From a virus (lineage: Duplodnaviria; Heunggongvirae; Uroviricota; Caudoviricetes): a DNA stretch of 14,679 nt. The stretch lies in IMG/VR virus record IMGVR_UViG_2698536369_000025; one strand, written 5' to 3'. Positions 2,948-14,679 of this stretch are shown one piece after another. Made by a program: the position numbers and the translations under genes. The notes beneath the pieces are model-generated. The model was not told where the DNA came from. It ran no database searches and was given only the letters and a program-made list of their open reading frames with translations. Numbering within the stretch: position 1 is the stretch's first letter; each line of letters begins with the position of its first letter.

Positions 2948-3751
2948 GTGCGTATGATTGATATTCATGCCGAATTAAACGAATACAAAAAAGATTTTAT
3001 TTCTTTACGTGAATTTCTTGAGGTCGTGCTTAAGGTCGCTGGTGATGATTATGATGTTTCAGATGTCATAACTTGGATACTCAGGAGAATAAGCGGAGAA
3101 CATATCCGCCTGTACACAGTAAATGAATTTAAGCTGTTGGAATCTTTTTGTAACCCGTATCGGGATGAATTTGATAATGATGTTCTTTATAGAAATCTGA
3201 ATGCGGTTCGGAAACGTGGTTGTTTACCTGGTGAGAGGGATGAAAATGGTTTTCTGGTGTCCGGTTATTGGGAAGATCCCGAATTTGAGAACATTGGATT
3301 TATAAGGGGTGAAATTTTCGCAATTTTTCCCGATGTCCTTGACGCGTTAACGAAGCTGGAAGGCGCTAACTCTTCTGAAAATGACGAGGCACAAGGACGC
3401 GATATTGAAAAGAAAGAGTTGCGTACAGAGGATGATTTATTATCCCAAATCGCAATGCTGGAAAAAGAAAACGCAGAGTTAAGGGCAAGGATAGAGCAGT
3501 TAGAGCAAGAGCGCCCGATACACTTATATAAATACTGGGATAAAGACCCATTAGCTAAGGCTATTGAGATTAGAAACAGAGAGTGGGCCAATTACGATCC
3601 AGAAAATGATTTTGCCACCAGGGGAAATCAAGAAGCGATAACCAGGGAGCTTAAGCAGTGGGGGGCAAGTAATGCACTTGCAACGCTCATAGAGAGGACT
3701 GCCTGCCCTATTAACCGAGACAACAGCCAAAAGAACGCAAAGCCGGATTAA
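2948..3751 (+). CDS. Hypothetical protein, about 265 aa, acidic with a central coiled-coil (LLSQIAMLEKENAELRARIEQLEQER); no recognised domain
   Basis: ORF 2948..3751; the more likely start is ATG 2954, with GAGG 2943-2946 seven nt upstream. Lower GC than flanks (24/60 G+C counted over 3001-3060). Followed by a palindrome plus T-run. Function unknown. Confidence 0.7.
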   Translation: MRMIDIHAELNEYKKDFISLREFLEVVLKVAGDDYDVSDVITWILRRISGEHIRLYTVNEFKLLESFCNPYRDEFDNDVLYRNLNAVRKRGCLPGERDENGFLVSGYWEDPEFENIGFIRGEIFAIFPDVLDALTKLEGANSSENDEAQGRDIEKKELRTEDDLLSQIAMLEKENAELRARIEQLEQERPIHLYKYWDKDPLAKAIEIRNREWANYDPENDFATRGNQEAITRELKQWGASNALATLIERTACPINRDNSQKNAKPD

Positions 3752-3764
3752 CGCACCATACCGC

Positions 3765-3912
3765 ATACCCTGAGGGTGATTTACTGTTACCCTGAGGGTA
3801 TTTTTTTATCTTCCCCGTCAATTTTACCATCACCCTTAGGGTAGATTTCCTCCCGATTACCATCACCCTTAGGGTAGATTTCCTTCCGGTAACCATTAGG
3901 CCTGAGGGTATG
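3765..3912. repeat. Array of near-palindromic ACCCT-N-AGGGT boxes (5 copies) including a roughly 32-bp tandem duplication; first pair plus T7 run may act as terminator of the upstream gene, the rest as operator sites upstream of alpA
   Basis: ACCCTGAGGGT at 3767-3777 and 3789-3799 (followed by T-run 3802-3808); ACCCTTAGGGT at 3832-3842 and 3864-3874 inside the tandem repeat TTACCATCACCCTTAGGGTAGATTTCCT (about 3825-3855 and 3857-3887); half-site CCTGAGGGTA 3901-3910. Confidence 0.6.
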
Positions 3913-3978
3913 AAAATATTCGTTATTTCTGTGCCATGATTACCTCGTCAAATTGAGTAGACGTTATGAGGTAAATAT

Positions 3979-4176
3979 ATGTCAAATACGCTTATTCGTT
4001 TAACAGAAGTTCAGCGTAGAACTGGATATAGCAAGGCATGGATTTATCGCCTTATGGGGCAAGGTAAATTTCCTGCATCAGTTAAAATTGGCTCGCGAGC
4101 TATTGCTTTCGTTGAGAGTGAAATTGACGAGTGGATTAATCAGCGTATTGCGGAATCACGCGGAACAGCTACCTGA
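3979..4176 (+). CDS. alpA: AlpA-family (prophage CP4-57-type) helix-turn-helix transcriptional regulator / excisionase-like protein, 65 aa
   Basis: ATG 3979 with GAGG 3968-3971. Translation MSNTLIRLTEVQRRTGYSKAWIYRLMGQGKFPASVKIGSRAIAFVESEIDEWI is the canonical AlpA pattern (RL.EV...TG.S....Y.....G.FP..VK.G.R...W...E...W). Typical partner of P4-type integrases. Confidence 0.85.
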   Translation: MSNTLIRLTEVQRRTGYSKAWIYRLMGQGKFPASVKIGSRAIAFVESEIDEWINQRIAESRGTAT

Positions 4177-4253: not shown

Positions 4254-5054
4254 ATGAAATTTCCAAAAACGCCCGTACAGGGGCGGGGCTTCGTTCGGCC
4301 TGAAAACCAGAATCTGCAAAATTTCGGCGAAATTATCCCGATTATTTCCGGCGTTATTGGCGGGAGTGAAACCACTATTGTTAGCGCCAGAGCGTTACAT
4401 AAGGCGTTAGGTGTAGGGCGCGTTTTCCGTTCGTGGATCAAGGGGCGCATTGAAGAATACGGGTTCACGGAAGGCGTGGATTATGAGGTTGTTGAATATT
4501 TGAGCCGACCCGATCCGGTGAGCGCAAAATCTCGCCAGCAAACCGCTCTTGAGTACATCATCACAGTGAACATGGCGAAAGAACTGGCGATGGTCGAACG
4601 TACCGAACAGGGCCGCGCCGTTCGCCAGTACTTTATCAAATGCGAGGAGGAGCTACACAAGGTTGCGCCTGTTCGTTCCGCAGCGTTACGCCGGGAACTG
4701 AAAGCCCGTATCACCGTTGCCAGCTACTTTAAGCCGATGTGTGCCGCGCTGGAGGCGTACCGGGCTGAACTGGGTAAAAACACGTTCCAGCACCACTACA
4801 CCACGGAAGCCAATATGCTGGCGCGTATCGTGCTGGGTGGCATGACTGCAAAACAGTGGGCGCAGGCGAACGGCATCACAGGCGAACCACGCGACCACAT
4901 GAGCACGTTGCAGCTTGAGCACCTTTCTTACCTTGAGCAGAGCAATATCACGCTGATTGAGTTAGGCCAGGACTACCACCAGCGGAAAGCTGAATTAATT
5001 CGCCTTTCGCAGCGTTGGTTAGCCCGTCGCATGGAGGAAAACAGCCATGTGTAA
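4254..5054 (+). CDS. Phage antirepressor-like regulatory protein (AntA/Bro-N-like N-terminal domain), 266 aa
   Basis: ATG 4254 with AGGAG 4244-4248; TAA 5052-5054. N-terminal segment TIVSARALHKALGVGRVFRSWIKGRIEEYGFTEGVDYEVV resembles the AntA/Bro-N antirepressor fold (recalled pattern, not searched). Assignment to the antirepressor family is moderate; the CDS call is stronger. Confidence 0.7.
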   Translation: MKFPKTPVQGRGFVRPENQNLQNFGEIIPIISGVIGGSETTIVSARALHKALGVGRVFRSWIKGRIEEYGFTEGVDYEVVEYLSRPDPVSAKSRQQTALEYIITVNMAKELAMVERTEQGRAVRQYFIKCEEELHKVAPVRSAALRRELKARITVASYFKPMCAALEAYRAELGKNTFQHHYTTEANMLARIVLGGMTAKQWAQANGITGEPRDHMSTLQLEHLSYLEQSNITLIELGQDYHQRKAELIRLSQRWLARRMEENSHV

Positions 5055-5324
5055 CGCTCTGACCGTTACAAAAAGAGAAAGCGCCCCGTTGCCGGAGCGC
5101 CTTTGTGAACGAATAGCCTACTGCGCCATATTGCTTACTGTCTACGAGGCAGATTATAGCGTTGTGGTCGCACAGAGTGAAGGCGCTGATCACCGTTACT
5201 ACAGCACGCCAGAAATGCAGAATATTTTGCTGCAAAATGTCGTTGGTCACGCTGTCCGGAAAGCAAAAAATTTTGCTGGTGGCGCGACTGATGCGATTTT
5301 TTCTGGTCGCCCGGTGCTGATCAA

Positions 5325-5627
5325 CTACTCCTGTTCTTTGGCCTTGCGGCGCTGGAGTTCTTCACGCGCGACGGTGACGAGTTGCCCGATCTCCTCGGCA
5401 GCTTTGACACCGATTTTTTCCACCTGCGCCAGTGCATCGAGCGAAGAAACCAGGGGATTTTCTCCTCTTCCTTCTGCCTGGCGGCGAGCGATCTCACCGC
5501 ACATGGCGGTTACTATGAATCCGGCGTTGCTTTCGCCGTCCAGTTTTACGGATTCCATGCCCTCCATAACATCGTGGGGAACCCTGATCGTTGTCATTTG
5601 CGATTTTGCATTTTTGTATACAGACAT
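5325..5627 (-). CDS. Small putative DNA-binding protein (ribbon-helix-helix-like N-terminus TTIRVPHDVMEGM), 100 aa, convergent with the upstream gene and divergent from the small-ORF operon
   Basis: Minus-strand ATG at 5627-5625, stop (CTA on plus) at 5325-5327; GGTGA-like SD upstream on the minus strand. Sits next to an operator-like repeat array. It fully overlaps a longer plus-strand ORF (5047..6201) judged spurious in this part. Confidence 0.6.
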   Translation of the reverse strand: MSVYKNAKSQMTTIRVPHDVMEGMESVKLDGESNAGFIVTAMCGEIARRQAEGRGENPLVSSLDALAQVEKIGVKAAEEIGQLVTVAREELQRRKAKEQE

Positions 5628-5835
5628 AGTTAATCACCAATTTGTTATGTGTATATCACTATACACAAAAGTGAGATATAAAAACACTTGCAATGTATAT
5701 CACCACAATATAATGTGTATCTCACATGGAGGTCGCTATGTATCTCACAATGAGCGATTCATAAAAACGACGAAACCCGGCAGTGCGCGAACACTAACCG
5801 GGCTTCTAACCAAACCGTTAAATGAGGTAACGATT
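5628..5835. promoter_or_regulatory. Divergent promoter/operator region with five copies of TGTAT(A/C)TCAC in both orientations, including a perfect 8-4-8 palindrome
   Basis: Palindrome TGTGTATA-tcac-TATACACA 5648-5667; GTGAGATATA 5671-5680 (inverted copy); TGTATATCAC 5694-5703; TGTATCTCAC 5717-5726 and 5739-5748. Lies between the minus-strand RHH-like gene and the plus-strand operon start at 5836. Confidence 0.55.
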
Positions 5836-6201
5836 ATGGCTGGAACACAGCATACCCAAACTCACCCTAAATTTATATACACCTTCCTGGCGGTGCACCG
5901 TGATTGCATGGCTGACGGTAAAAACACTGTACACGTAGCCGCTGATACGCTGGTGGATGCCTGCAAGATGCTCAATGATATGGGCTATATCTCGGCAACA
6001 TGGAAAGGGCGCGAAGAAAACACGCTGTTTATTCAGAAATGCGAAAACAATTTTATATGGCGTTTTATCGCCCTGAGCACAGCACAACCGCGTGTAATTC
6101 ACATCGAGGCCACCAGCGAACAGGAAGCACGCCAGCAATCTCCTGATGGCTGCGTGATGGTATTCGCTGCCCGCATTCGCCAGGAGGTGGAACATGTGTA
6201 A
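5836..6201 (+). CDS. Hypothetical protein, 121 aa, first gene of a coupled small-ORF operon
   Basis: ATG 5836 with GAGG 5824-5827 eight nt upstream; TAA 6199-6201. Same frame as the long ORF 5047..6201, but only this part has an RBS and does not overlap the minus-strand gene. Confidence 0.7.
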   Translation: MAGTQHTQTHPKFIYTFLAVHRDCMADGKNTVHVAADTLVDACKMLNDMGYISATWKGREENTLFIQKCENNFIWRFIALSTAQPRVIHIEATSEQEARQQSPDGCVMVFAARIRQEVEHV

Positions 6202-6418
6202 TGCAACATGGCCTGATGCAGCGGTAGACGCTATCAAAACGCTGATGGATTCACTTGTTGAGATTTCTGCTATCGCTGGTGTGGCGCATAAACACGCAGC
6301 CAGAGAATCAGAATGCATCTCCCATTATTTAGCATTTGTGCAGCTAAAAGCCGATCAGGCACTGGATAAGGCCGGAAAAATTATCATGGCTGATGTGCAG
6401 GAGGTGCACCATGCATAA
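6194..6418 (+). CDS. Hypothetical small protein, 74 aa
   Basis: ATG 6194 overlaps the stop of the previous gene; AGGAGGTGG 6182-6190 upstream. Translational coupling pattern. Confidence 0.6.
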   Translation: MCNATWPDAAVDAIKTLMDSLVEISAIAGVAHKHAARESECISHYLAFVQLKADQALDKAGKIIMADVQEVHHA

Positions 6419-6776
6419 CCTGTCAATTTCTGACCTTAACAGCATTCAGTTTGACGAGAAATTTACCGGGCAGTTGCTGGTCAATGTGGAGAACGGGCGC
6501 ATAGTGCGTAATTACCACCTGCCGGATGGTGCAATTGCCGGAAGCGTTGAAGCATTGCTGGAACTGGCGGAACGTGCGCGACTGATTAAGCCGTCAACGA
6601 GCCATCACGATGATGATCTGCATTTTACCGGGCGTATGGTGAGTCACTACGAAAACGGCGTTGAAGTATCCCGCGAACGGCTGCGTGATGATTGCTGTTT
6701 CGGCACACTGCCGGAATTTATCGAGTTGCTGAACAGTTGCGGTTATCAGGTCATTCAGGGGGGTAAACATGCGTGA
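6411..6776 (+). CDS. Hypothetical protein, 121 aa
   Basis: ATG 6411 with AGGAGG 6399-6404 six nt upstream; overlaps the previous stop (6416-6418). The six-frame ORF begins at 6393 but lacks an RBS there. Confidence 0.65.
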   Translation: MHNLSISDLNSIQFDEKFTGQLLVNVENGRIVRNYHLPDGAIAGSVEALLELAERARLIKPSTSHHDDDLHFTGRMVSHYENGVEVSRERLRDDCCFGTLPEFIELLNSCGYQVIQGGKHA

Positions 6777-7002
6777 TGATCGTTTTAATTCCCTGAAACG
6801 GGAATTTGATGGCGCACCGGAAGATGCAGCGGGCGCATTGTTGAGCGTTGCTGACATGATGAAAGCTGCATATTTTCTTATCAATACCAGTGGCTACAAG
6901 TCAGAGGGTGAAATGATTCTTAGTATTGCGTCGGACTATGCGGAATATGTGGCAGAGACGCGTTACAGAAGAAAATTCACGGAGGATGTAAGCCATGCAT
7001 AA
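6769..7002 (+). CDS. Hypothetical small protein, 77 aa
   Basis: ATG 6769 overlapping the previous stop (TGA 6774-6776); G-rich SD 6758-6763. Confidence 0.6.
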   Translation: MRDDRFNSLKREFDGAPEDAAGALLSVADMMKAAYFLINTSGYKSEGEMILSIASDYAEYVAETRYRRKFTEDVSHA

Positions 7003-7195
7003 TCATGAAGCGCATGTACCCGTAGTGCTTAATGTGCCAGATGATTTCACCGGACGCGTACTGGTTTACCTGGATAAAGGGAAAGTGAAATCACAATGCC
7101 GACTGAAAAGTAATGAGATTGTTGGTTCTCCTGAATTTTTTTCTGAACTTTGTATTCGTGCGGAAATAAAACCGGAACTGCTGACAGGAAAATAA
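6995..7195 (+). CDS. Hypothetical small protein, 66 aa
   Basis: ATG 6995 with GGAGGA 6981-6986 eight nt upstream; overlaps the previous stop (7000-7002). Confidence 0.55.
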   Translation: MHNHEAHVPVVLNVPDDFTGRVLVYLDKGKVKSQCRLKSNEIVGSPEFFSELCIRAEIKPELLTGK

Positions 7196-7199
7196 AACC

Positions 7200-7514
7200 A
7201 TGAAAAAGAAAAATTCTGGCTTTACTGCCAGCGGCCTCTCTCGGCCTGAAATCCGCCCCGGCGATATTTTCCGGGATAAATACGGCAGCACGATAACGGT
7301 AAAAACCGTCGATGATTTTCGCGTGACCTATATCCGCGAAGGTTATACGCATCCCTGCGTGTCGTCACATATGCGCTTTGAAAGGGAATTCATCCTGGTA
7401 AGTAAAGCGCCACTAGCAGAATTAAGCGACATCGACAAAATCATGAGCGTCACGGGCGCGGAACGCATCAGGACAGTACGTGAAATTATTCGTGAGCGGG
7501 GAGGTAAGAAGTGA
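7200..7514 (+). CDS. Hypothetical protein, 104 aa
   Basis: ATG 7200 four nt after the previous stop; its stop TGA 7512-7514 overlaps the GTG start of the replication gene. Confidence 0.6.
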   Translation: MKKKNSGFTASGLSRPEIRPGDIFRDKYGSTITVKTVDDFRVTYIREGYTHPCVSSHMRFEREFILVSKAPLAELSDIDKIMSVTGAERIRTVREIIRERGGKK

Positions 7515-9643
7515 AAAACGCACCGAATTTAAAATATCAGCCGAAGGATAAATTCACCGAGGTAATCATTTTTGCCGGGACGGATGCTTACGCCCATGCT
7601 CAACACTGGATTGAAAGCGAAGGACGAAAACACGGCGATAACGTGCCACCTGTTTATCTGGGGCCAAAGCAACTGGCAGACCTGGCGAATATCCGCATTA
7701 TTGACGCGAAACGCCGCTTTGCACGTGTCTATCTCGCGGGGGAGATAGAACCAATCCAGATCAATGCTATCGCTGAAAAGCTGGCGCTGGCTGGCGTACA
7801 GGAGGCGAAATTATACAAAGGTATCACCGACCGGGAGCCGGAGAACTGGCACGACTACCTGCAACGGATCCGCGAACAGGCCGAACGCGGGGAAACCATG
7901 ACGGAGGAAGTCAGGAGAGTGGGGGGATTGCCCGGAAGAACAGATCCCATGAAACCGCATATCACCGAAAAAGATGGTGCGCTCTGGTATGTCGAGCCAA
8001 TACCCAATACCAGAGCAGAGGAGCTGAATCATAAGGAAACCTGGTTGAGTGACAGGATGCGCACAGCGGGTATTGGTAATGACGGTCGGGAAGCGTATCT
8101 GATAATTGAAATGATCCCGGAAGGAACACAGAAAATTATTTACGAAGCGATGCCGCGCAATGAAATCGGTATGCCAGCAGGATGGGCGAGGTTACGTGGA
8201 CGGGGTGTTGCAATCACCACCAGCGCCCATTTACTGAATAAACTGGCGGAATACCTGCAACGTCAGGGAGATCGTACTGTGTGGGAGGTCACATCAACAG
8301 CCGGATGGCATTGTGGAGCCTATGTTATGCCAGATGGTGAGGTGATTGGTGTACCGGATCGTCCAGTGGCATTCTGTGGCGGATCTGCAGCCATCAAAGG
8401 CTATATCGTCAGGGGGACGGTACAGGAATGGAGGAATAATGTCGCCTCCCTGATGAGAGGTAATCACTCAATGATGCTTGGGGTACTGGTCGGACTGGCA
8501 GCACCCCTTAATTCTCTTGTGGGCGGAAGTTGTTTTGGTATCCACCTTTTCGCGCAGTCGTCAGCAGGGAAAACCACGACGGTGGAAGCTGCCACCAGTC
8601 TTTATGGCGATCCTGAAATGCTCAAACTTTCGTGGGATGCCACCCGGCACGGACTGACGGTGGAAGCTGCCGCACGTAATGATGGCTTTATCCCCATTGA
8701 TGAAATTGGTCAGGGAGGAAGGATTAATGACATCGCGCAATCCGCCTACAGCCTGTTTAACGGTGTGGGGAGAATTCAGGGACGAAAAGATGGCGGCAAT
8801 CGTGCAGTAATGCGCTGGAAAATAGCGGCACTAAGCACAGGGGAAGAAGATTTTGAGACCTTCCTGTTAAAAGGGGGGATCACCCCAAAAGCCGGGCAAC
8901 TGGTGCGGCTGCTAAGCGTTCCCTTTACCGATACAACGGTTTTTAACGGGTATGACGATGGTGATCAACATGCCAGAGCAATAAAGCGACTTTCATCAAA
9001 TTATTGTGGAGCTGCGGGGCGTGAGTGGGTGCGCTGGTTATCCGCTCATAAGGAACTGGCTATTAACACCACTTCCGATAAAGAAAATACCTGGCTGGGA
9101 AATCTGCCTGAAAATGCATCGTCACAGGTCAGACGTGTGGCTTCACGCTTTGCCATGCTGGATGCGGCCGGAGAACTTGCCACCGCAATTACTGGCTGGA
9201 CAGCCGAAGAATGCCGGGCAGCAACACAACGGGCTTTTGATGACTGGTTACAGGATTTCGGGCTGGAAAACCGGGAAAAATACCAGGTCATCAGCCGCGC
9301 CCGTGATTTTATTCAGCGCCATGCCCTGAGCCGTTTTCAGCCTTATACCTACGGGAAAAGCAATGGAAATATGGATAACCACTATGCATCCCGTATAAAC
9401 AACCTTGCAGGGTATCTTGTCAGTGGTAAGCGTGAGGATGGAAAACCCGAATATCACATTATCCCGTCAGTGTTTGATGGCGAAATTTTATGCGGCATAT
9501 CCAGGAACTTTGGGTGTCAGGCGCTGGAGGAAGCCGGAATGCTGGTTTGTGCAGAACCCGGTCGCTGGACATCGAAAACGGTGAAGATTAACGGAACACA
9601 GCAGCGATTTATCGTGCTGATTGACCAGGCTGAAGACGAATAA
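7511..9643 (+). CDS. Putative replication initiation protein of the element: P-loop NTPase, primase/helicase-like (DUF927-type), 710 aa
   Basis: GTG 7511 with GGGGAGG 7494-7500. Walker A HLFAQSSAGKTT and Walker B-like GFIPIDEIGQ in the central region; conserved TAGWH motif; comparable in size and position to P4 alpha-type proteins. An iteron array lies immediately downstream. Family assignment is from recalled motifs. Confidence 0.8.
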   Translation: MKNAPNLKYQPKDKFTEVIIFAGTDAYAHAQHWIESEGRKHGDNVPPVYLGPKQLADLANIRIIDAKRRFARVYLAGEIEPIQINAIAEKLALAGVQEAKLYKGITDREPENWHDYLQRIREQAERGETMTEEVRRVGGLPGRTDPMKPHITEKDGALWYVEPIPNTRAEELNHKETWLSDRMRTAGIGNDGREAYLIIEMIPEGTQKIIYEAMPRNEIGMPAGWARLRGRGVAITTSAHLLNKLAEYLQRQGDRTVWEVTSTAGWHCGAYVMPDGEVIGVPDRPVAFCGGSAAIKGYIVRGTVQEWRNNVASLMRGNHSMMLGVLVGLAAPLNSLVGGSCFGIHLFAQSSAGKTTTVEAATSLYGDPEMLKLSWDATRHGLTVEAAARNDGFIPIDEIGQGGRINDIAQSAYSLFNGVGRIQGRKDGGNRAVMRWKIAALSTGEEDFETFLLKGGITPKAGQLVRLLSVPFTDTTVFNGYDDGDQHARAIKRLSSNYCGAAGREWVRWLSAHKELAINTTSDKENTWLGNLPENASSQVRRVASRFAMLDAAGELATAITGWTAEECRAATQRAFDDWLQDFGLENREKYQVISRARDFIQRHALSRFQPYTYGKSNGNMDNHYASRINNLAGYLVSGKREDGKPEYHIIPSVFDGEILCGISRNFGCQALEEAGMLVCAEPGRWTSKTVKINGTQQRFIVLIDQAEDE

Positions 9644-9674
9644 AACCGCCTACGCTCGCAGAGGGTCAAAAATC

Positions 9675-9949
9675 GCGGGATATGCGGGATATCGGGATAT
9701 GAAAAATATATTATATAGATATCAATTACTTATGTGTCGTTATCGTATCCCGCCATATCCCGCCGTATCCCGGTATTTTGGTTTACGAATGGTTTAAAAA
9801 CAAACGAAATCACTGTATCCCGGAACGTATCCCGCAATATGTTATTGATGCATAAGCAAAAAAAAACTTACCGGGATATGGCGGGATACGAAAAATCGCA
9901 TAACATAATGAAAAATAAGTTGTTTTTTGTTTGTATCCCGATATCCCGG
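9675..9949. repeat. Iteron array / putative origin of replication: about 12 copies of CGGGATA(T/C) in direct and inverted orientation flanking an AT-rich stretch
   Basis: GCGGGATAT at 9675-9683 and 9684-9692, CGGGATAT 9693-9700; AT-rich 9701-9744; inverted copies GTATCCCGCC 9745-9754, ATATCCCGCC 9755-9764, GTATCCCGG 9765-9773, 9815-9823, GTATCCCGC 9827-9835; CCGGGATAT 9871-9879, GGCGGGATA 9880-9888; GTATCCCG 9933-9940, ATATCCCGG 9941-9949. Confidence 0.6.
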
Positions 9950-10103
9950 TAAAAAATGGTTTTTTACGCCTTATAGAGTACAGAAAAGTGATTGCTCAAA
10001 TTTTGTATTACAGGTGGCTACCGTCAGCCATCCGACCTGGAAAAGGCATAAAAGCAGATATGTCATTTTGACAATCAGACTGTTTTGATGATTACACGCC
10101 GAT

Positions 10104-12536: not shown

Positions 12537-12929
12537 GCGGAGCGTTACGGTAAGCCAACAGCCAAGCCAAACATTAAGTCTACAGGTAAGGTTGTTTTTT
12601 TGCAGGTGGCATTAATTTGTATGTTGGTTTGAGGAGCATTTTTACTGAGACTGTCTGTTCTGGTTAGTTTTTTCGTATGATATACACCTCATCAAAATTG
12701 TCCGACAGTGTGGAGCGGCGTGGCGGGGAGAGTATTGTGTGCTAGAGATTATAGTTACACTTTAATCTACGACACGATCGTAATTTTTCACTCTTCTTTT
12801 CAGATAAGCTACTACTGAGTTCACAAAAATAACATTATTTTATATCCATGCGTTATCTTTATCTGATATTAATGTGCTGTTCGGTCTTTTTTTGACTGCA
12901 AACGGCATGAATCATATTAAGGAAACCAA

Positions 12930-13091
12930 GTGAAAATATCTTTTTTTGGCGTAAATAACTTTAGGACAATATCAGGTGGCATTGGTAATAATAGAATAAT
13001 ATTTAAAGATACCAATACGCTTTTCATTTACGGGGCAAATAATGCTGGAAAATCAACTTATTTAAAAGCATATATGTTTTTTTTACAGTAA
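12930..13091 (+). CDS. N-terminal fragment (53 codons) of an OLD-family ABC-type ATPase carrying the Walker A motif; out of frame with the downstream part because of a T8 run
   Basis: GTG 12930 with AAGGAAA 12919-12925. Translation VKISFFGVNNFRTISGGIGNNRIIFKDTNTLFIYGANNAGKSTYLKAYMFFLQ* has the same opening architecture as P2 Old/GajA-type ATPases (as recalled). TAA 13089-13091 follows the T8 run 13077-13084. Confidence 0.6.
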   Translation: MKISFFGVNNFRTISGGIGNNRIIFKDTNTLFIYGANNAGKSTYLKAYMFFLQ

Positions 13092-13173
13092 TGAAAAACC
13101 TATCATTGATGATTTCTTTAAACGAGACGACAATAATTCTATTGAGTTCGAATTAGAAGTTCAACTTGATGAC

Positions 13174-14679
13174 TTGGATAAAGAAAGAATAGAAGCCAAA
13201 GCACCGAAGCAAAAGGAAAGTTATAAGAAGTATTTAAATAATGATTTTATTAGAATTAAGAAAGTATGGAGTAAAAATGGAACAAGAATAGAGGATAAAA
13301 ATTATACTTATGATTATAGTAAAGGAGATAGCGGCGAGTATGATGAAGTTGGATATGCAACAATTGGTTTGCATCAGGTCTTCCAATCTTGTTTGCCAAA
13401 ACCTGTATTTATAAAGGCTATGCCAACAGAGGAAGAAGCTAAGAAGATTCTTAATGAAATCCTAAAGATGATGGCTGAAAATACACTTAAAACATCTGAT
13501 CTTGATGAATTAAAAGCAGCTCAGAATAAAATAAAAGAATTACAAGACAAAATGTATGATCCAGAATTAATTGAAACCTATCAGAATTCAGTTAACGGAT
13601 ACTTTAACAAGATATTCGGTGATACTGCTATATGCTTCAAAGATCAAAAAGATAGGGTTGTTTGGACGGAGAATAAGCTTGGCAGAGATTTTGAAATTGA
13701 GTTTATGAAAAAAAATAGCCAAGGGGAGTTTGATGGCAATATCCCTTCAAGTTATAGCAGTGTAGGTCATGGAACTATTAGGACTGCAATATTTACATTA
13801 TTATTGATGAGAGATGTAGCAGAGCGTTTTGAAAGAAGGCTTGGACGTAAAGATTACATGGTTCTGTTTGAGGAGCCTGAGCTATTTCTCTATCCTAGAA
13901 TGGTGAAGGAACTTCGTGAATTGATTTATCAGGTGAGCACTGAAGACCTTCCATATCAAGTACTTTGTGCCTCACATTCATCTTCCATGATAGATCTTTC
14001 AAAGCCTAAATCTTCGATAATACGATTAGTTAATAATTCTACTGGAACTAAATCATATCAAATTAATGATCAATTTTTGAAGGATGCAAAAGGCATTGCT
14101 ACAAATGCTGAACTTAAACAAGAAATGTATGAAGTTTTGAGGTTCAACCCTTATATTTGTGAATCATTCTACGCTGATGAGGTACTTCTGATTGAGGGGC
14201 CAACAGAAGAAATAATATGTAGAGCTTTTTTACAAGAAACCCCATCAGATAAATCTATATTCGTATTGAACTGTGGTACGGTTAATAACATTCCTTTTTA
14301 TCAAAAAATCTTCTCAAGGTTTAATATAAAATATCATGTGATCTGTGATACAGATAAAGCAGAAATAGTTACCGTAGATCAATCTGGCAATGCAGATTTT
14401 GATTCTGGAATACAGAAAACAATTTCAGAACAGTATAGGAATGATTGTACTGCAATGAATGGTAATATAGGACTACTTCGAACTCATAACATTACATTTG
14501 AACCTGCTCATCAAGATGTTAGTATTCCTGACTTTTTGAGATTTGTTGATTGCGGTGATAGAAGCAAACCATTTAATGCAAACTTGTACTGGAAGGATAT
14601 TTTAAGGCCAAATATATCACATCAAGATATAAATAAAGTGCCTATAATTAAGTATTTGAATGAAATAATAGCACATTAA
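13174..14679 (+). CDS. OLD-family (overcoming lysogenisation defect) ATPase-Toprim nuclease-like protein, C-terminal about 500 aa; candidate anti-phage defence gene; frameshifted relative to its N-terminal Walker A fragment
   Basis: Open frame runs back to 13066 without a stop; the track start at 13174 is TTG. Motifs: GHGTIRTA (Q-loop/signature-like), VLFEEPELFLYP (Walker B), CASHSS (H-loop), then Toprim-like LLIEGPTEE and a DTD acidic motif (VICDTDK). AT-rich (15/60 and 21/60 G+C in two counted 60-nt samples, against 32/60 in the replication gene). TAA is the last codon of the window. Confidence 0.8.
   Translation: MDKERIEAKAPKQKESYKKYLNNDFIRIKKVWSKNGTRIEDKNYTYDYSKGDSGEYDEVGYATIGLHQVFQSCLPKPVFIKAMPTEEEAKKILNEILKMMAENTLKTSDLDELKAAQNKIKELQDKMYDPELIETYQNSVNGYFNKIFGDTAICFKDQKDRVVWTENKLGRDFEIEFMKKNSQGEFDGNIPSSYSSVGHGTIRTAIFTLLLMRDVAERFERRLGRKDYMVLFEEPELFLYPRMVKELRELIYQVSTEDLPYQVLCASHSSSMIDLSKPKSSIIRLVNNSTGTKSYQINDQFLKDAKGIATNAELKQEMYEVLRFNPYICESFYADEVLLIEGPTEEIICRAFLQETPSDKSIFVLNCGTVNNIPFYQKIFSRFNIKYHVICDTDKAEIVTVDQSGNADFDSGIQKTISEQYRNDCTAMNGNIGLLRTHNITFEPAHQDVSIPDFLRFVDCGDRSKPFNANLYWKDILRPNISHQDINKVPIIKYLNEIIAH

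Follow-up and report, generated by a model that had tools for sequence, protein, structure and literature searches.

A ribbon-helix-helix gene and five facing repeat sites as the probable on/off switch of an Escherichia coli PICI

In the phage-inducible chromosomal island (PICI) of E. coli described here, a phage satellite, a small gene for a ribbon-helix-helix (RHH) protein of the YlcI/YnfO family and the five repeat sites that it faces most likely form the on/off switch that keeps the island silent. The RHH protein probably binds these sites and represses PR, the predicted promoter of the operon that runs from an Icd-like gene to the island primase. An initial annotation of the same DNA had proposed a repressor/operator pair for the replication operon, and comparison with related islands supports this: the repeat word tracks the class of the RHH protein, and the sites lie at PR. 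From this pairing we infer the role of immunity switch that the annotation had also suggested. In addition, a layer of control that it did not include is predicted, in the form of an antisense RNA that covers the point where the operon's first gene begins.

The window, the whole stretch of 14,679 nucleotides that was analysed, opens within proA and contains thrW (tRNA-Thr, 1369-1441), which holds the att core TCCTATTATC. The integrase gene (1611-2825) lies beside this tRNA att site and is followed by an int-alpA RNA motif (2870-2937), by alpA on the same strand (3979-4176), and by a gene for an AntA-type protein (4254-5054). Past the RHH gene and the divergent region, the putatively controlled plus-strand operon (5836..9643) begins with the Icd-like gene (5836-6201; NF033153 match, annotated as a cell-division inhibitor) and continues through four small ORFs and a DUF4222 gene (7200-7514) to a DUF927 primase/helicase gene (7511-9643). 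Successive starts and stops overlap or are at most 4 nt apart, and the divergent operon that had been read as starting at 5836 does indeed begin with a gene there and extend as an overlapping chain of ORFs to 9643. ProQ/FinO and PerC genes come after this operon. Directly after the primase gene, an AT-rich stretch (9670-9950) carries more than 10 copies of CGGGATAT in both orientations; on sequence grounds it is a PICI-type replication origin, whose iteron word is unrelated to the repeats of the promoter region.

This arrangement of an integrase beside a tRNA att site, alpA after int on the same strand, a replication operon with an iteron origin, and no lysis or tail genes is that of a PICI. 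Because its gene set and insertion site (thrW beside proA, core TCCTATTATC) match those of EcCIMP1, the window is, by sequence, an EcCIMP1-like Gram-negative PICI at thrW. In EcCIMP1, the insertion lies between proA and the island, the same site as in the window, and phage Kapi1 induces and packages that PICI, for which alpA is needed (PMC11773190). Induction and packaging by helper phage have been established experimentally for the EcCIMP1 and EcCICFT073 copies (PMC11773190, PMC6092414). A search for the right-hand att site within the window found none; the right end of the island lies outside it. The 1.1-kb stretch around the RHH gene and repeats is matched in 1169 of the 5426 complete E. 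coli genomes.

The RHH gene occupies 5325..5627 on the minus strand and encodes a protein of 100 aa (MSVYKNAKSQMTTIRVPHD...), with a Shine-Dalgarno sequence, GGTGA (5634..5638, minus strand), 6 nt before the ATG at 5627. Its product has 233 homologues across Enterobacterales (Escherichia, Yersinia, Citrobacter, Enterobacter, Klebsiella, Serratia, Erwinia, Edwardsiella, Xenorhabdus, and Photorhabdus), aligned over its full length, and pairwise dN/dS values of 0.03-0.19 in the minus-strand frame indicate purifying selection. The minus-strand 100-aa ORF singled out in the initial annotation is, on this comparative evidence, a real, conserved gene. Residues N6, S9, and Q10 near the N-terminus are conserved among the homologues, which favours the upstream (long) start; the internal ATG at M11 was rejected as the true start, since residues 1-10 are conserved and a Shine-Dalgarno sequence is present at the upstream ATG only. 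A 384-aa ORF on the plus strand (5047-6201), antisense to the RHH gene that it traverses, was dismissed as a chance open frame, given the selection on the minus-strand frame and its absence from the RefSeq annotation.

Residues 8-49 of the protein match the 42-residue N-terminal model of YlcI/YnfO, NCBIfam NF041551, with 69.2 bits against a cut-off of 30, and the RefSeq annotation of an identical locus is also YlcI/YnfO. Structure prediction places an RHH domain of about 45 residues (beta-alpha-alpha, an N-terminal strand and two helices) at residues ~8-52, so that the N-terminus, called RHH-like from its sequence, does model as an RHH domain over its first ~50 residues. Residues 58-99 are predicted to form a single long C-terminal helix (pLDDT 76-91, monomer prediction). 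A weak helix-hairpin-helix-like match to Hef was also seen (E 0.013). Pfam returned no family at E<=0.01 and only DUF7423 at E 0.038. Some homologue names in UniRef read 'Arc-like' or 'CopG family', and hhalign against Arc and Mnt sequences gave non-significant probabilities of 6% and 0.4%, respectively. At 50% identity, a set of 1.84 billion proteins yields 70 representatives of the family, which is thus small; about 15 of these have two domains, and the remainder are RHH-only proteins of ~60 aa. A tblastn search of the protein against 50,697 phage records found no match, and hence no link to YlcI/YnfO genes of helper phages.

The 208-bp divergent region contains four exact plus-strand copies of the word TGTATMTCAC and one inverted copy with one mismatch. 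O1 (TGTATATCAC, 5650..5659, plus strand) overlaps the predicted start region of a leftward promoter, PL. O2 (TATATCTCAC, 5671..5680, minus strand), the inverted copy, lies in the PL spacer and upstream of the PR -35 box, while O3 (TGTATATCAC, 5694..5703, plus strand) lies within the PR spacer and adjoins that box. O4 (TGTATCTCAC, 5716..5725, plus strand) shares the last base of the -10 box and spans the predicted transcription start, and O5 (TGTATCTCAC, 5739..5748, plus strand) is in the leader at about +16 to +25, in the loop of a small hairpin (5732-5757). The site centres are 21-23 bp apart, about two helical turns, and position 12677 has the sole further near-match in the 14.7 kb. A span of 100 bp holds all five sites, compared with a maximum of 3 in all resamples (1000 first-order Markov resamples of the whole window and 20000 of the intergenic region with its own composition). 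The pattern was selected after the data had been seen; this is no longer a worry, because the same architecture recurs independently in relatives. Thus, the five TGTAT(A/C)TCAC sites first counted here are all present and exceed chance, with the correction that only four are exact and direct. The 'perfect palindrome' reported among them needs more revision. Inverted arms do exist at 5648-5667, but they are interrupted (TGTGTATA-TCAC-TATACACA), and the right arm, TATACAC, belongs to a class-independent conserved element, TATACACAAAA. This arm is probably the PL -10 box read on the other strand rather than a copy of the repeat.

The PR -35 box is TTGCAA (5688..5693, plus strand), at a position where TTGACx is found in every class of relatives described below, and the -10 box is TAATGT (5711..5716, plus strand), with the 17-nt spacer at which TAAnnT is conserved across the classes. 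TATAAT (5709-5714, plus strand), with a 15-nt spacer, is an alternative -10. The predicted PL -10 box, TATAGT (5658..5663, minus strand), lies inside TATACACAAAA and is conserved on that strand as TATAnT or TAnnnT in all classes; no good -35 was found for PL. A consensus promoter scan of 5200-6000 returned no promoter, and the promoter hexamers of the window are weak; consequently, the promoter calls are based on cross-class conservation. The intergenic region (5628-5835) contains no LexA box, and its reading as a LexA/SOS operator was rejected on that account.

The comparison set consists of about 100 related loci from genomes and IMG/VR, all of which share the order int, alpA, variable genes, RHH gene, ~200-bp gap, small ORFs, DUF4222, and primase. 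In some of the loci, capsid genes follow, which marks these as capsid-forming PICIs. At least 8 classes of RHH protein can be distinguished, which differ mainly in the N-terminal arm and strand, at residues 11 and 13. Each class has its own word, present in 4-5 copies at the same positions around a conserved promoter, TTGACx-17-TAAnnT: two copies upstream of -35, one abutting -35 in the spacer, one at the -10/start, and often one in the leader. With classes designated by residues 11/13, the window belongs to M/T, whose word is TGTAT[AC]TC. The word is TGTGTTTC in class L/T (E. coli, Serratia, Xenorhabdus, Photorhabdus), TGTAAG[AC]C in S/T (E. coli, Klebsiella, Enterobacter), TGTGATTC in Q/S, TGGTATTC in Q/N, GGTGTGT/GGTGTAT in M/N, GTGTGTAT in the class with L or V and N, and GTGGGCCACAC in A/K, the class of EcCICFT073. 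In the QLTTVRVP class, E. coli members have a fifth, inverted copy of their own word near the O5 position; the Xenorhabdus/Photorhabdus and Serratia members are without it.

The two variable residues fall where an RHH protein would be expected to read DNA. In the register of the non-significant Arc alignment, M11, T13, and R15 lie on Q9, N11, and R13, the base-contacting residues of Arc. Positions 11 and 13 vary by class, and R15 (the equivalent of Arc R13) is invariant across the homologues. M11, T13, and R15 are the predicted base-reading residues of the strand.

A point against reading this pairing as a sign of repression is that no more than ~20 bp separates the operators from the N-terminal codons, and linkage could account for part of their joint inheritance. 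As far as the sequences go, linkage alone does not explain the co-variation of word and RHH class, because 4-5 dispersed copies shift together, the protein changes at residues predicted to read DNA, and the boundaries of exchange hug the unit. Such boundaries are seen between the window and relative L040, which are ~96% identical (mismatches counted in the alignment) over 5327-5587 and 5764-5812 and diverged over 5588-5763, that is, over exactly codons 1-13 plus the operators. Relatives L076 and L012 display the same mosaic pattern, L012 at a coarser scale.

The same comparison bears on which other island protein might use the repeats. AlpA is required for the induction of EcCICFT073 and EcCIMP1 and activates island genes (PMC6092414, PMC11773190), and with alpA at 3979-4176 of the window, the repeats could be AlpA binding sites to which the RHH protein is unrelated. 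This is very unlikely, given that two repeat words are found beside one and the same AlpA sequence (20 loci), that a second AlpA is combined with three RHH classes and the window's class with three AlpA types, and that L012 and L013 have identical repeats and different alpA regions. With no co-variation between AlpA and the word, AlpA was rejected as the repeat binder. The Icd-like or first-ORF protein (a 'transcriptional repressor' in PHROGs) was likewise set aside, since its ORF types A, B, and C are shuffled among the classes. It is still harder to credit that the repeats are origin iterons for the island primase/initiator, a reading to which we assign a very slight probability. The ~22-bp spacing is as regular as that of plasmid iterons and the array is upstream of replication genes; however, the typical PICI origin, with its CGGGATAT word, is at 9670-9950 instead, the repeat word does not go with the type of primase (DUF927, D5_N, and AAA_25 are mixed within classes), and the sites coincide with promoter elements.

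The conserved positions of the sites also argue about the direction of control. O1 and O2 lie upstream of -35, where activators bind, which would fit an RHH protein that activates PR from the repeats or serves there as an architectural factor. In every class, however, there is a site in the spacer right after -35, where O3 lies, and another over the transcription start, the place of O4; proteins at such positions normally occlude RNA polymerase. Moreover, a quiescent integrated island requires that its replication operon be off. Activation or an architectural role is therefore improbable, and repression of PR by the RHH protein is the reading that we prefer.

EcCICFT073 (strain CFT073) has the same module, with a 59-aa YlcI/YnfO protein, a ~200-bp gap, and an Icd-like gene, and the module is also found in EcCIMP1-like islands and capsid-forming PICIs. 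In the EcCICFT073 protein, the RHH head is joined directly to an RRKAKEQE tail and the C-terminal helix is absent, which implies that the helix is not essential for the protein's role there. The EcCICFT073 gap contains GTGGGCCACACC twice, 23 bp apart, around the -10 box.

These features help to weigh the view that the RHH protein is mainly an antitoxin in the style of a type II TA system, whose C-terminal helix neutralises the Icd-like protein or a 57-aa protein and whose DNA binding is autoregulatory only. The closest structural matches of the predicted protein are RHH antitoxins, the gene that heads the facing operon carries the annotation of a cell-division inhibitor, and 55 of 99 related loci have a conserved 57-aa basic ORF after the RHH gene on the same strand. 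The window, though, has no homologue of that ORF; no ORF of >=50 aa lies between the RHH stop at 5325 and an intrinsic terminator at 5078-5103 on the minus strand, where the RHH transcript probably ends, and the adjacent co-transcribed toxin gene of a type II TA system is thus missing. The Icd-like gene points away from the RHH gene and is not co-transcribed with it. In addition, 4-5 operators that reach across PR exceed the needs of autoregulation, and EcCICFT073 keeps its operators though its protein is without the C-terminal helix. A mainly antitoxin role is, in our estimate, unlikely. The antitoxin and repressor roles are compatible with each other.

Downstream of the repeats, the minus strand is predicted to encode a SymR-like cis-antisense RNA of ~77 nt (5765..5841, running from about 5841 to 5765). 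The Shine-Dalgarno sequence and ATG of the Icd-like gene fall within the stretch taken up by its 5' hairpin (5808-5841), and a second hairpin (5772-5806), followed by a U-run, would be the intrinsic terminator of the RNA; the predicted -10 box, TATGCT (5849..5854, minus strand), lies inside the Icd-like ORF. In a permissive scan, Rfam RF01809 (SymR) matched 5769-5841 of the minus strand with 35.7 bits (E 2.7e-5), below the gathering score of 61, as did relative L003 with 38.7 bits. By the curated score, then, the RNA falls outside the SymR family, and what it targets is not SymE. Two hairpins form in the predicted fold of the 82-nt minus-strand segment 5843-5762 (-33.9 kcal/mol, z -5.7), and all 35 sequence variants that were folded give the same pair; only on the minus strand does UUUCGUCGUUUUUAU come after the 3' hairpin. 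Across 27 distinct sequences, the helix shows compensatory changes (e.g. AU/CG/GU at one pair and CG/GC/UG/AU at another). Canonical pairing in the helix is 98.6% for the minus strand versus 84.2% for the plus strand, an excess due to 50 G-U pairs, which would be A-C mismatches on the other strand. Together, these features make it very probable that the minus strand encodes a cis-antisense RNA spanning the start codon and ribosome site of the Icd-like gene, and we infer that it is expressed.

The resemblance to SymE/SymR (PMC1891008; RF01809) extends to the layout, in that each RNA starts a few nt inside the target ORF, spans its start codon and Shine-Dalgarno sequence, and consists of two hairpins with a terminator. 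The alignment of the window with K-12 symR reveals the shared sequences CAGyCATAA, TTGTGrTTAG, and GTGTTsGCGCAC (in RNA, CAGyCAUAA, UUGUGrUUAG, and GUGUUsGCGCAC), and the -10-to-start spacing is the same, TATGCT+7+A in the window and TAGAAT+7+A in K-12 symR, with the symR -10 (TAGAAT) taken from PMC1891008. The differences are the score of 35.7 bits against a threshold of 61, an Icd-like target in place of SymE (AbrB-fold), and the lack of a LexA box. C4 and isrK RNAs had no match at the gathering threshold, nor at E<=10 in 5560-5900, and a C4 or isrK immunity RNA, as in P1, P4, and some PICIs, was rejected for want of a matching RNA.

In the mechanism that we propose, the 100-aa protein would be a two-domain RHH repressor, whose dimers insert a paired strand (residues 11-16) into the major groove of sites of ~10-11 bp and are probably joined by the C-terminal helix. 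Spaced by about two helical turns, the five sites would all face the same side of the DNA. The PR -10 box is flanked by O3 and O4, and O5 is just downstream, so occupancy of these sites should exclude RNA polymerase and turn the replication operon off. O1 and O2 lie over PL, and the RHH protein should therefore limit its own synthesis; the gene is presumably autoregulated. In the integrated state, RHH dimers, possibly bridged by the helix, would sit on O1-O5, with PR shut and PL limited, and a constitutive SymR-like antisense RNA would block leaky translation of the Icd-like first gene. As to induction, our best guess is that transcription from the alpA promoter, once induced by the helper, reads through the convergent RHH gene. 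Transcription of alpA and the AntA-type gene would meet no obvious plus-strand terminator before the RHH gene and the operon, since the terminator at 5078-5103 acts on the minus strand only, having no T-run on the plus strand. This route is preferred because AlpA acts as an antiterminator in Pseudomonas (PMC9998450). In EcCICFT073, expression of alpA alone triggers excision and replication (PMC6092414), which suggests that there the RHH protein is not an absolute block or is bypassed.

By analogy, this mechanism would be an ordinary one, an RHH repressor with divergent promoters as at P22 Mnt/immI; it is the assignment that is new for these islands, the prototype EcCICFT073 included. The immI region of P22 has the RHH repressors Mnt and Arc, the divergent promoters Pant and Pmnt, and the sar antisense RNA. 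As there, the window has a small RHH repressor candidate with a C-terminal segment that may serve for oligomerisation, divergent from the operon that it would control, operators that overlap back-to-back promoters, and a short predicted antisense RNA over the ribosome site of the downstream gene. In contrast to P22, one operator is replaced by five sites spaced at 22 bp, and the genes that would be under control are Icd-like and replication genes of a satellite rather than the antirepressor of a phage; nor is the RHH protein significantly similar in sequence to either Mnt or Arc. P1 immI (C4 RNA-icd-ant) and P4 rely on RNA immunity, in which processing of the sense transcript yields the C4 and CI RNAs, whose targets are sites close by. 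There, too, the early operon of a phage or satellite opens with an Icd-type gene and is controlled at the RNA level, but the RNA of the window is predicted to be a true cis-antisense transcript, combined with a candidate protein repressor, and has no C4/isrK match. P1 C4 and P4 CI RNA immunity are discussed in PMC10111431.

In Gram-positive SaPIs/PICIs, the master repressor Stl (Rpr) operates a divergent stl-str switch (PMC6092414). The RHH gene has the same island position, between the integrase side and the replication operon, is likewise divergent, and would likewise hold the island silent. Stl, however, is a helix-turn-helix protein of unrelated sequence that is lifted by the binding of a helper-phage protein, whereas the protein here has an RHH fold and AlpA is the known positive factor.

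YlcI/YnfO has been listed as a 'prophage-associated protein', without a stated function (PMC13612085), and the other later PICI papers that we examined do not mention the RHH gene. Searches of the literature on YlcI/YnfO and on PICIs with ribbon-helix-helix found no functional study. The candidate repressor would fill a stated gap, as none has been identified yet for Gram-negative PICIs and their control has been explained by AlpA only.

A wider proposal can be offered, which we regard as possible and put forward tentatively. The YlcI/YnfO RHH protein may be the missing master repressor of enterobacterial PICIs and cf-PICIs, with at least 8 immunity types that do not cross-react, induction by AlpA read-through or by mixed dimers, and a SymR-like RNA that forms a type I-like module related by descent to symER. 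If so, the head and operators would be an exchangeable cassette of ~175 bp, and several islands could coexist in one cell. AlpA-driven read-through would silence the repressor at the same time as it bypasses PR; another possibility is that mixed dimers form between the repressor and the short YlcI/YnfO paralogues encoded by lambdoid helper phages. With the SymR-like RNA opposite it, the Icd-like gene would amount to a type I toxin-like module, and K-12 symER and satellite leaders would be related by descent through this RNA.

Gram-negative PICIs disseminate genes for virulence and defence, and work is under way to engineer them as delivery vehicles. For these islands, the RHH/operator module is a concrete, testable candidate for what maintains the silent state, and the predicted antisense RNA would be a second checkpoint to overcome at induction. 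Strand residues 11 and 13, set against the operator word, would amount to a specificity code that can be read from sequence, and the classes may represent a natural set of orthogonal repressor/operator pairs.

Opposite the start of the Icd-like gene, the first gene of the operon read from the predicted rightward promoter PR, lies a predicted SymR-like cis-antisense RNA (5765-5841, minus strand), which covers the ribosome site and ATG of that gene; its predicted promoter -10 element is at 5849-5854 (-). The conserved fold of the RNA consists of two hairpins, with covariation present in the terminator helix, and the G-U asymmetry of this helix points to the minus strand as the likely source of the transcript. 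Its Rfam score is under threshold. The motifs that it shares with K-12 symR, the antisense RNA of the SymE/SymR module, suggest that the two leaders are of common descent.

At its 5' end, the PR transcript has a small hairpin (GTCGCT...AGCGAT, 5732-5757), the loop of which holds O5, one of the five predicted operator sites. Most other classes, each an RHH type with its own repeated operator word, have a hairpin of other sequence at the equivalent place in the PR leader, for example CCTTGAGTATTCAAGG. The PR-leader hairpin may serve as an mRNA stabiliser or as an addition to the protein site. Elsewhere in the window, the operator word has a single near-match, TGTATATCAT at 12677-12686 (-), which differs from it at one position and stands alone; chance would yield about one match of this kind.

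An open frame of 384 codons (5047-6201, plus strand) is in frame with the Icd-like gene and spans the intergenic region and, in antisense, the entire RHH gene. This frame is absent from the RefSeq annotation and was judged to be a chance open frame rather than a real gene.

Residues 58-99 of the RHH protein (DNA 5328-5456), segment SLDALAQVEKIGVKAAEEI, are similar to a helix-hairpin-helix motif; in profile comparison they match Hef weakly (E 0.013), and I72-G73 hardly varies. In contrast to this reading of the sequence, the AlphaFold model shows residues 58-99 as a single straight helix. A 59-aa version of the protein is encoded by EcCICFT073 (L103 9474-9653), the prototype Gram-negative PICI, in strain CFT073. 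Residues ~51-92 seem to have been lost from this version by an internal deletion, which joins the RHH head to the RRKAKEQE tail. The operator word of that island, GTGGGCCACACC, is its own and is present in two copies.

In 55 of 99 related loci, a conserved, very basic ORF of 57 aa (MTDKELTKTLSPARKRRRRK...) follows the RHH gene on its 3' side and on the same strand, as at 3773-3943 of the related island locus L012 and at 9243-9416 of L103. It has no family match in Pfam or NCBIfam, and window 5104-5324 does not contain it. Its product may be a toxin, a co-repressor or a protein of another kind.

On the integrase side, the gap that separates the integrase gene from the following ORF contains an int-alpA RNA motif (Rfam RF02996; 2870-2937, plus strand; 45.5 bits, over threshold). 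Related locus L008 also has the motif, at 34.8 bits, slightly under the threshold of 35.8. The 267-aa ORF at 2948-3751 (+) has no Pfam or NCBIfam match over threshold; RefSeq gives it the name "protein kinase" at a locus that is nearly identical.

The right part of the window (12560-14679) is low in G+C. It contains a P-loop-like ORF that is broken (GANNAGKST at ~13030), and a second, long ORF continues past the window end; no right att site lies inside the window. This region is probably island cargo. Directly 3' of the primase gene, CGGGATAT iterons are densely arrayed in both orientations around AT-rich stretches (9670-9950), and this region is the probable replication origin of the island.
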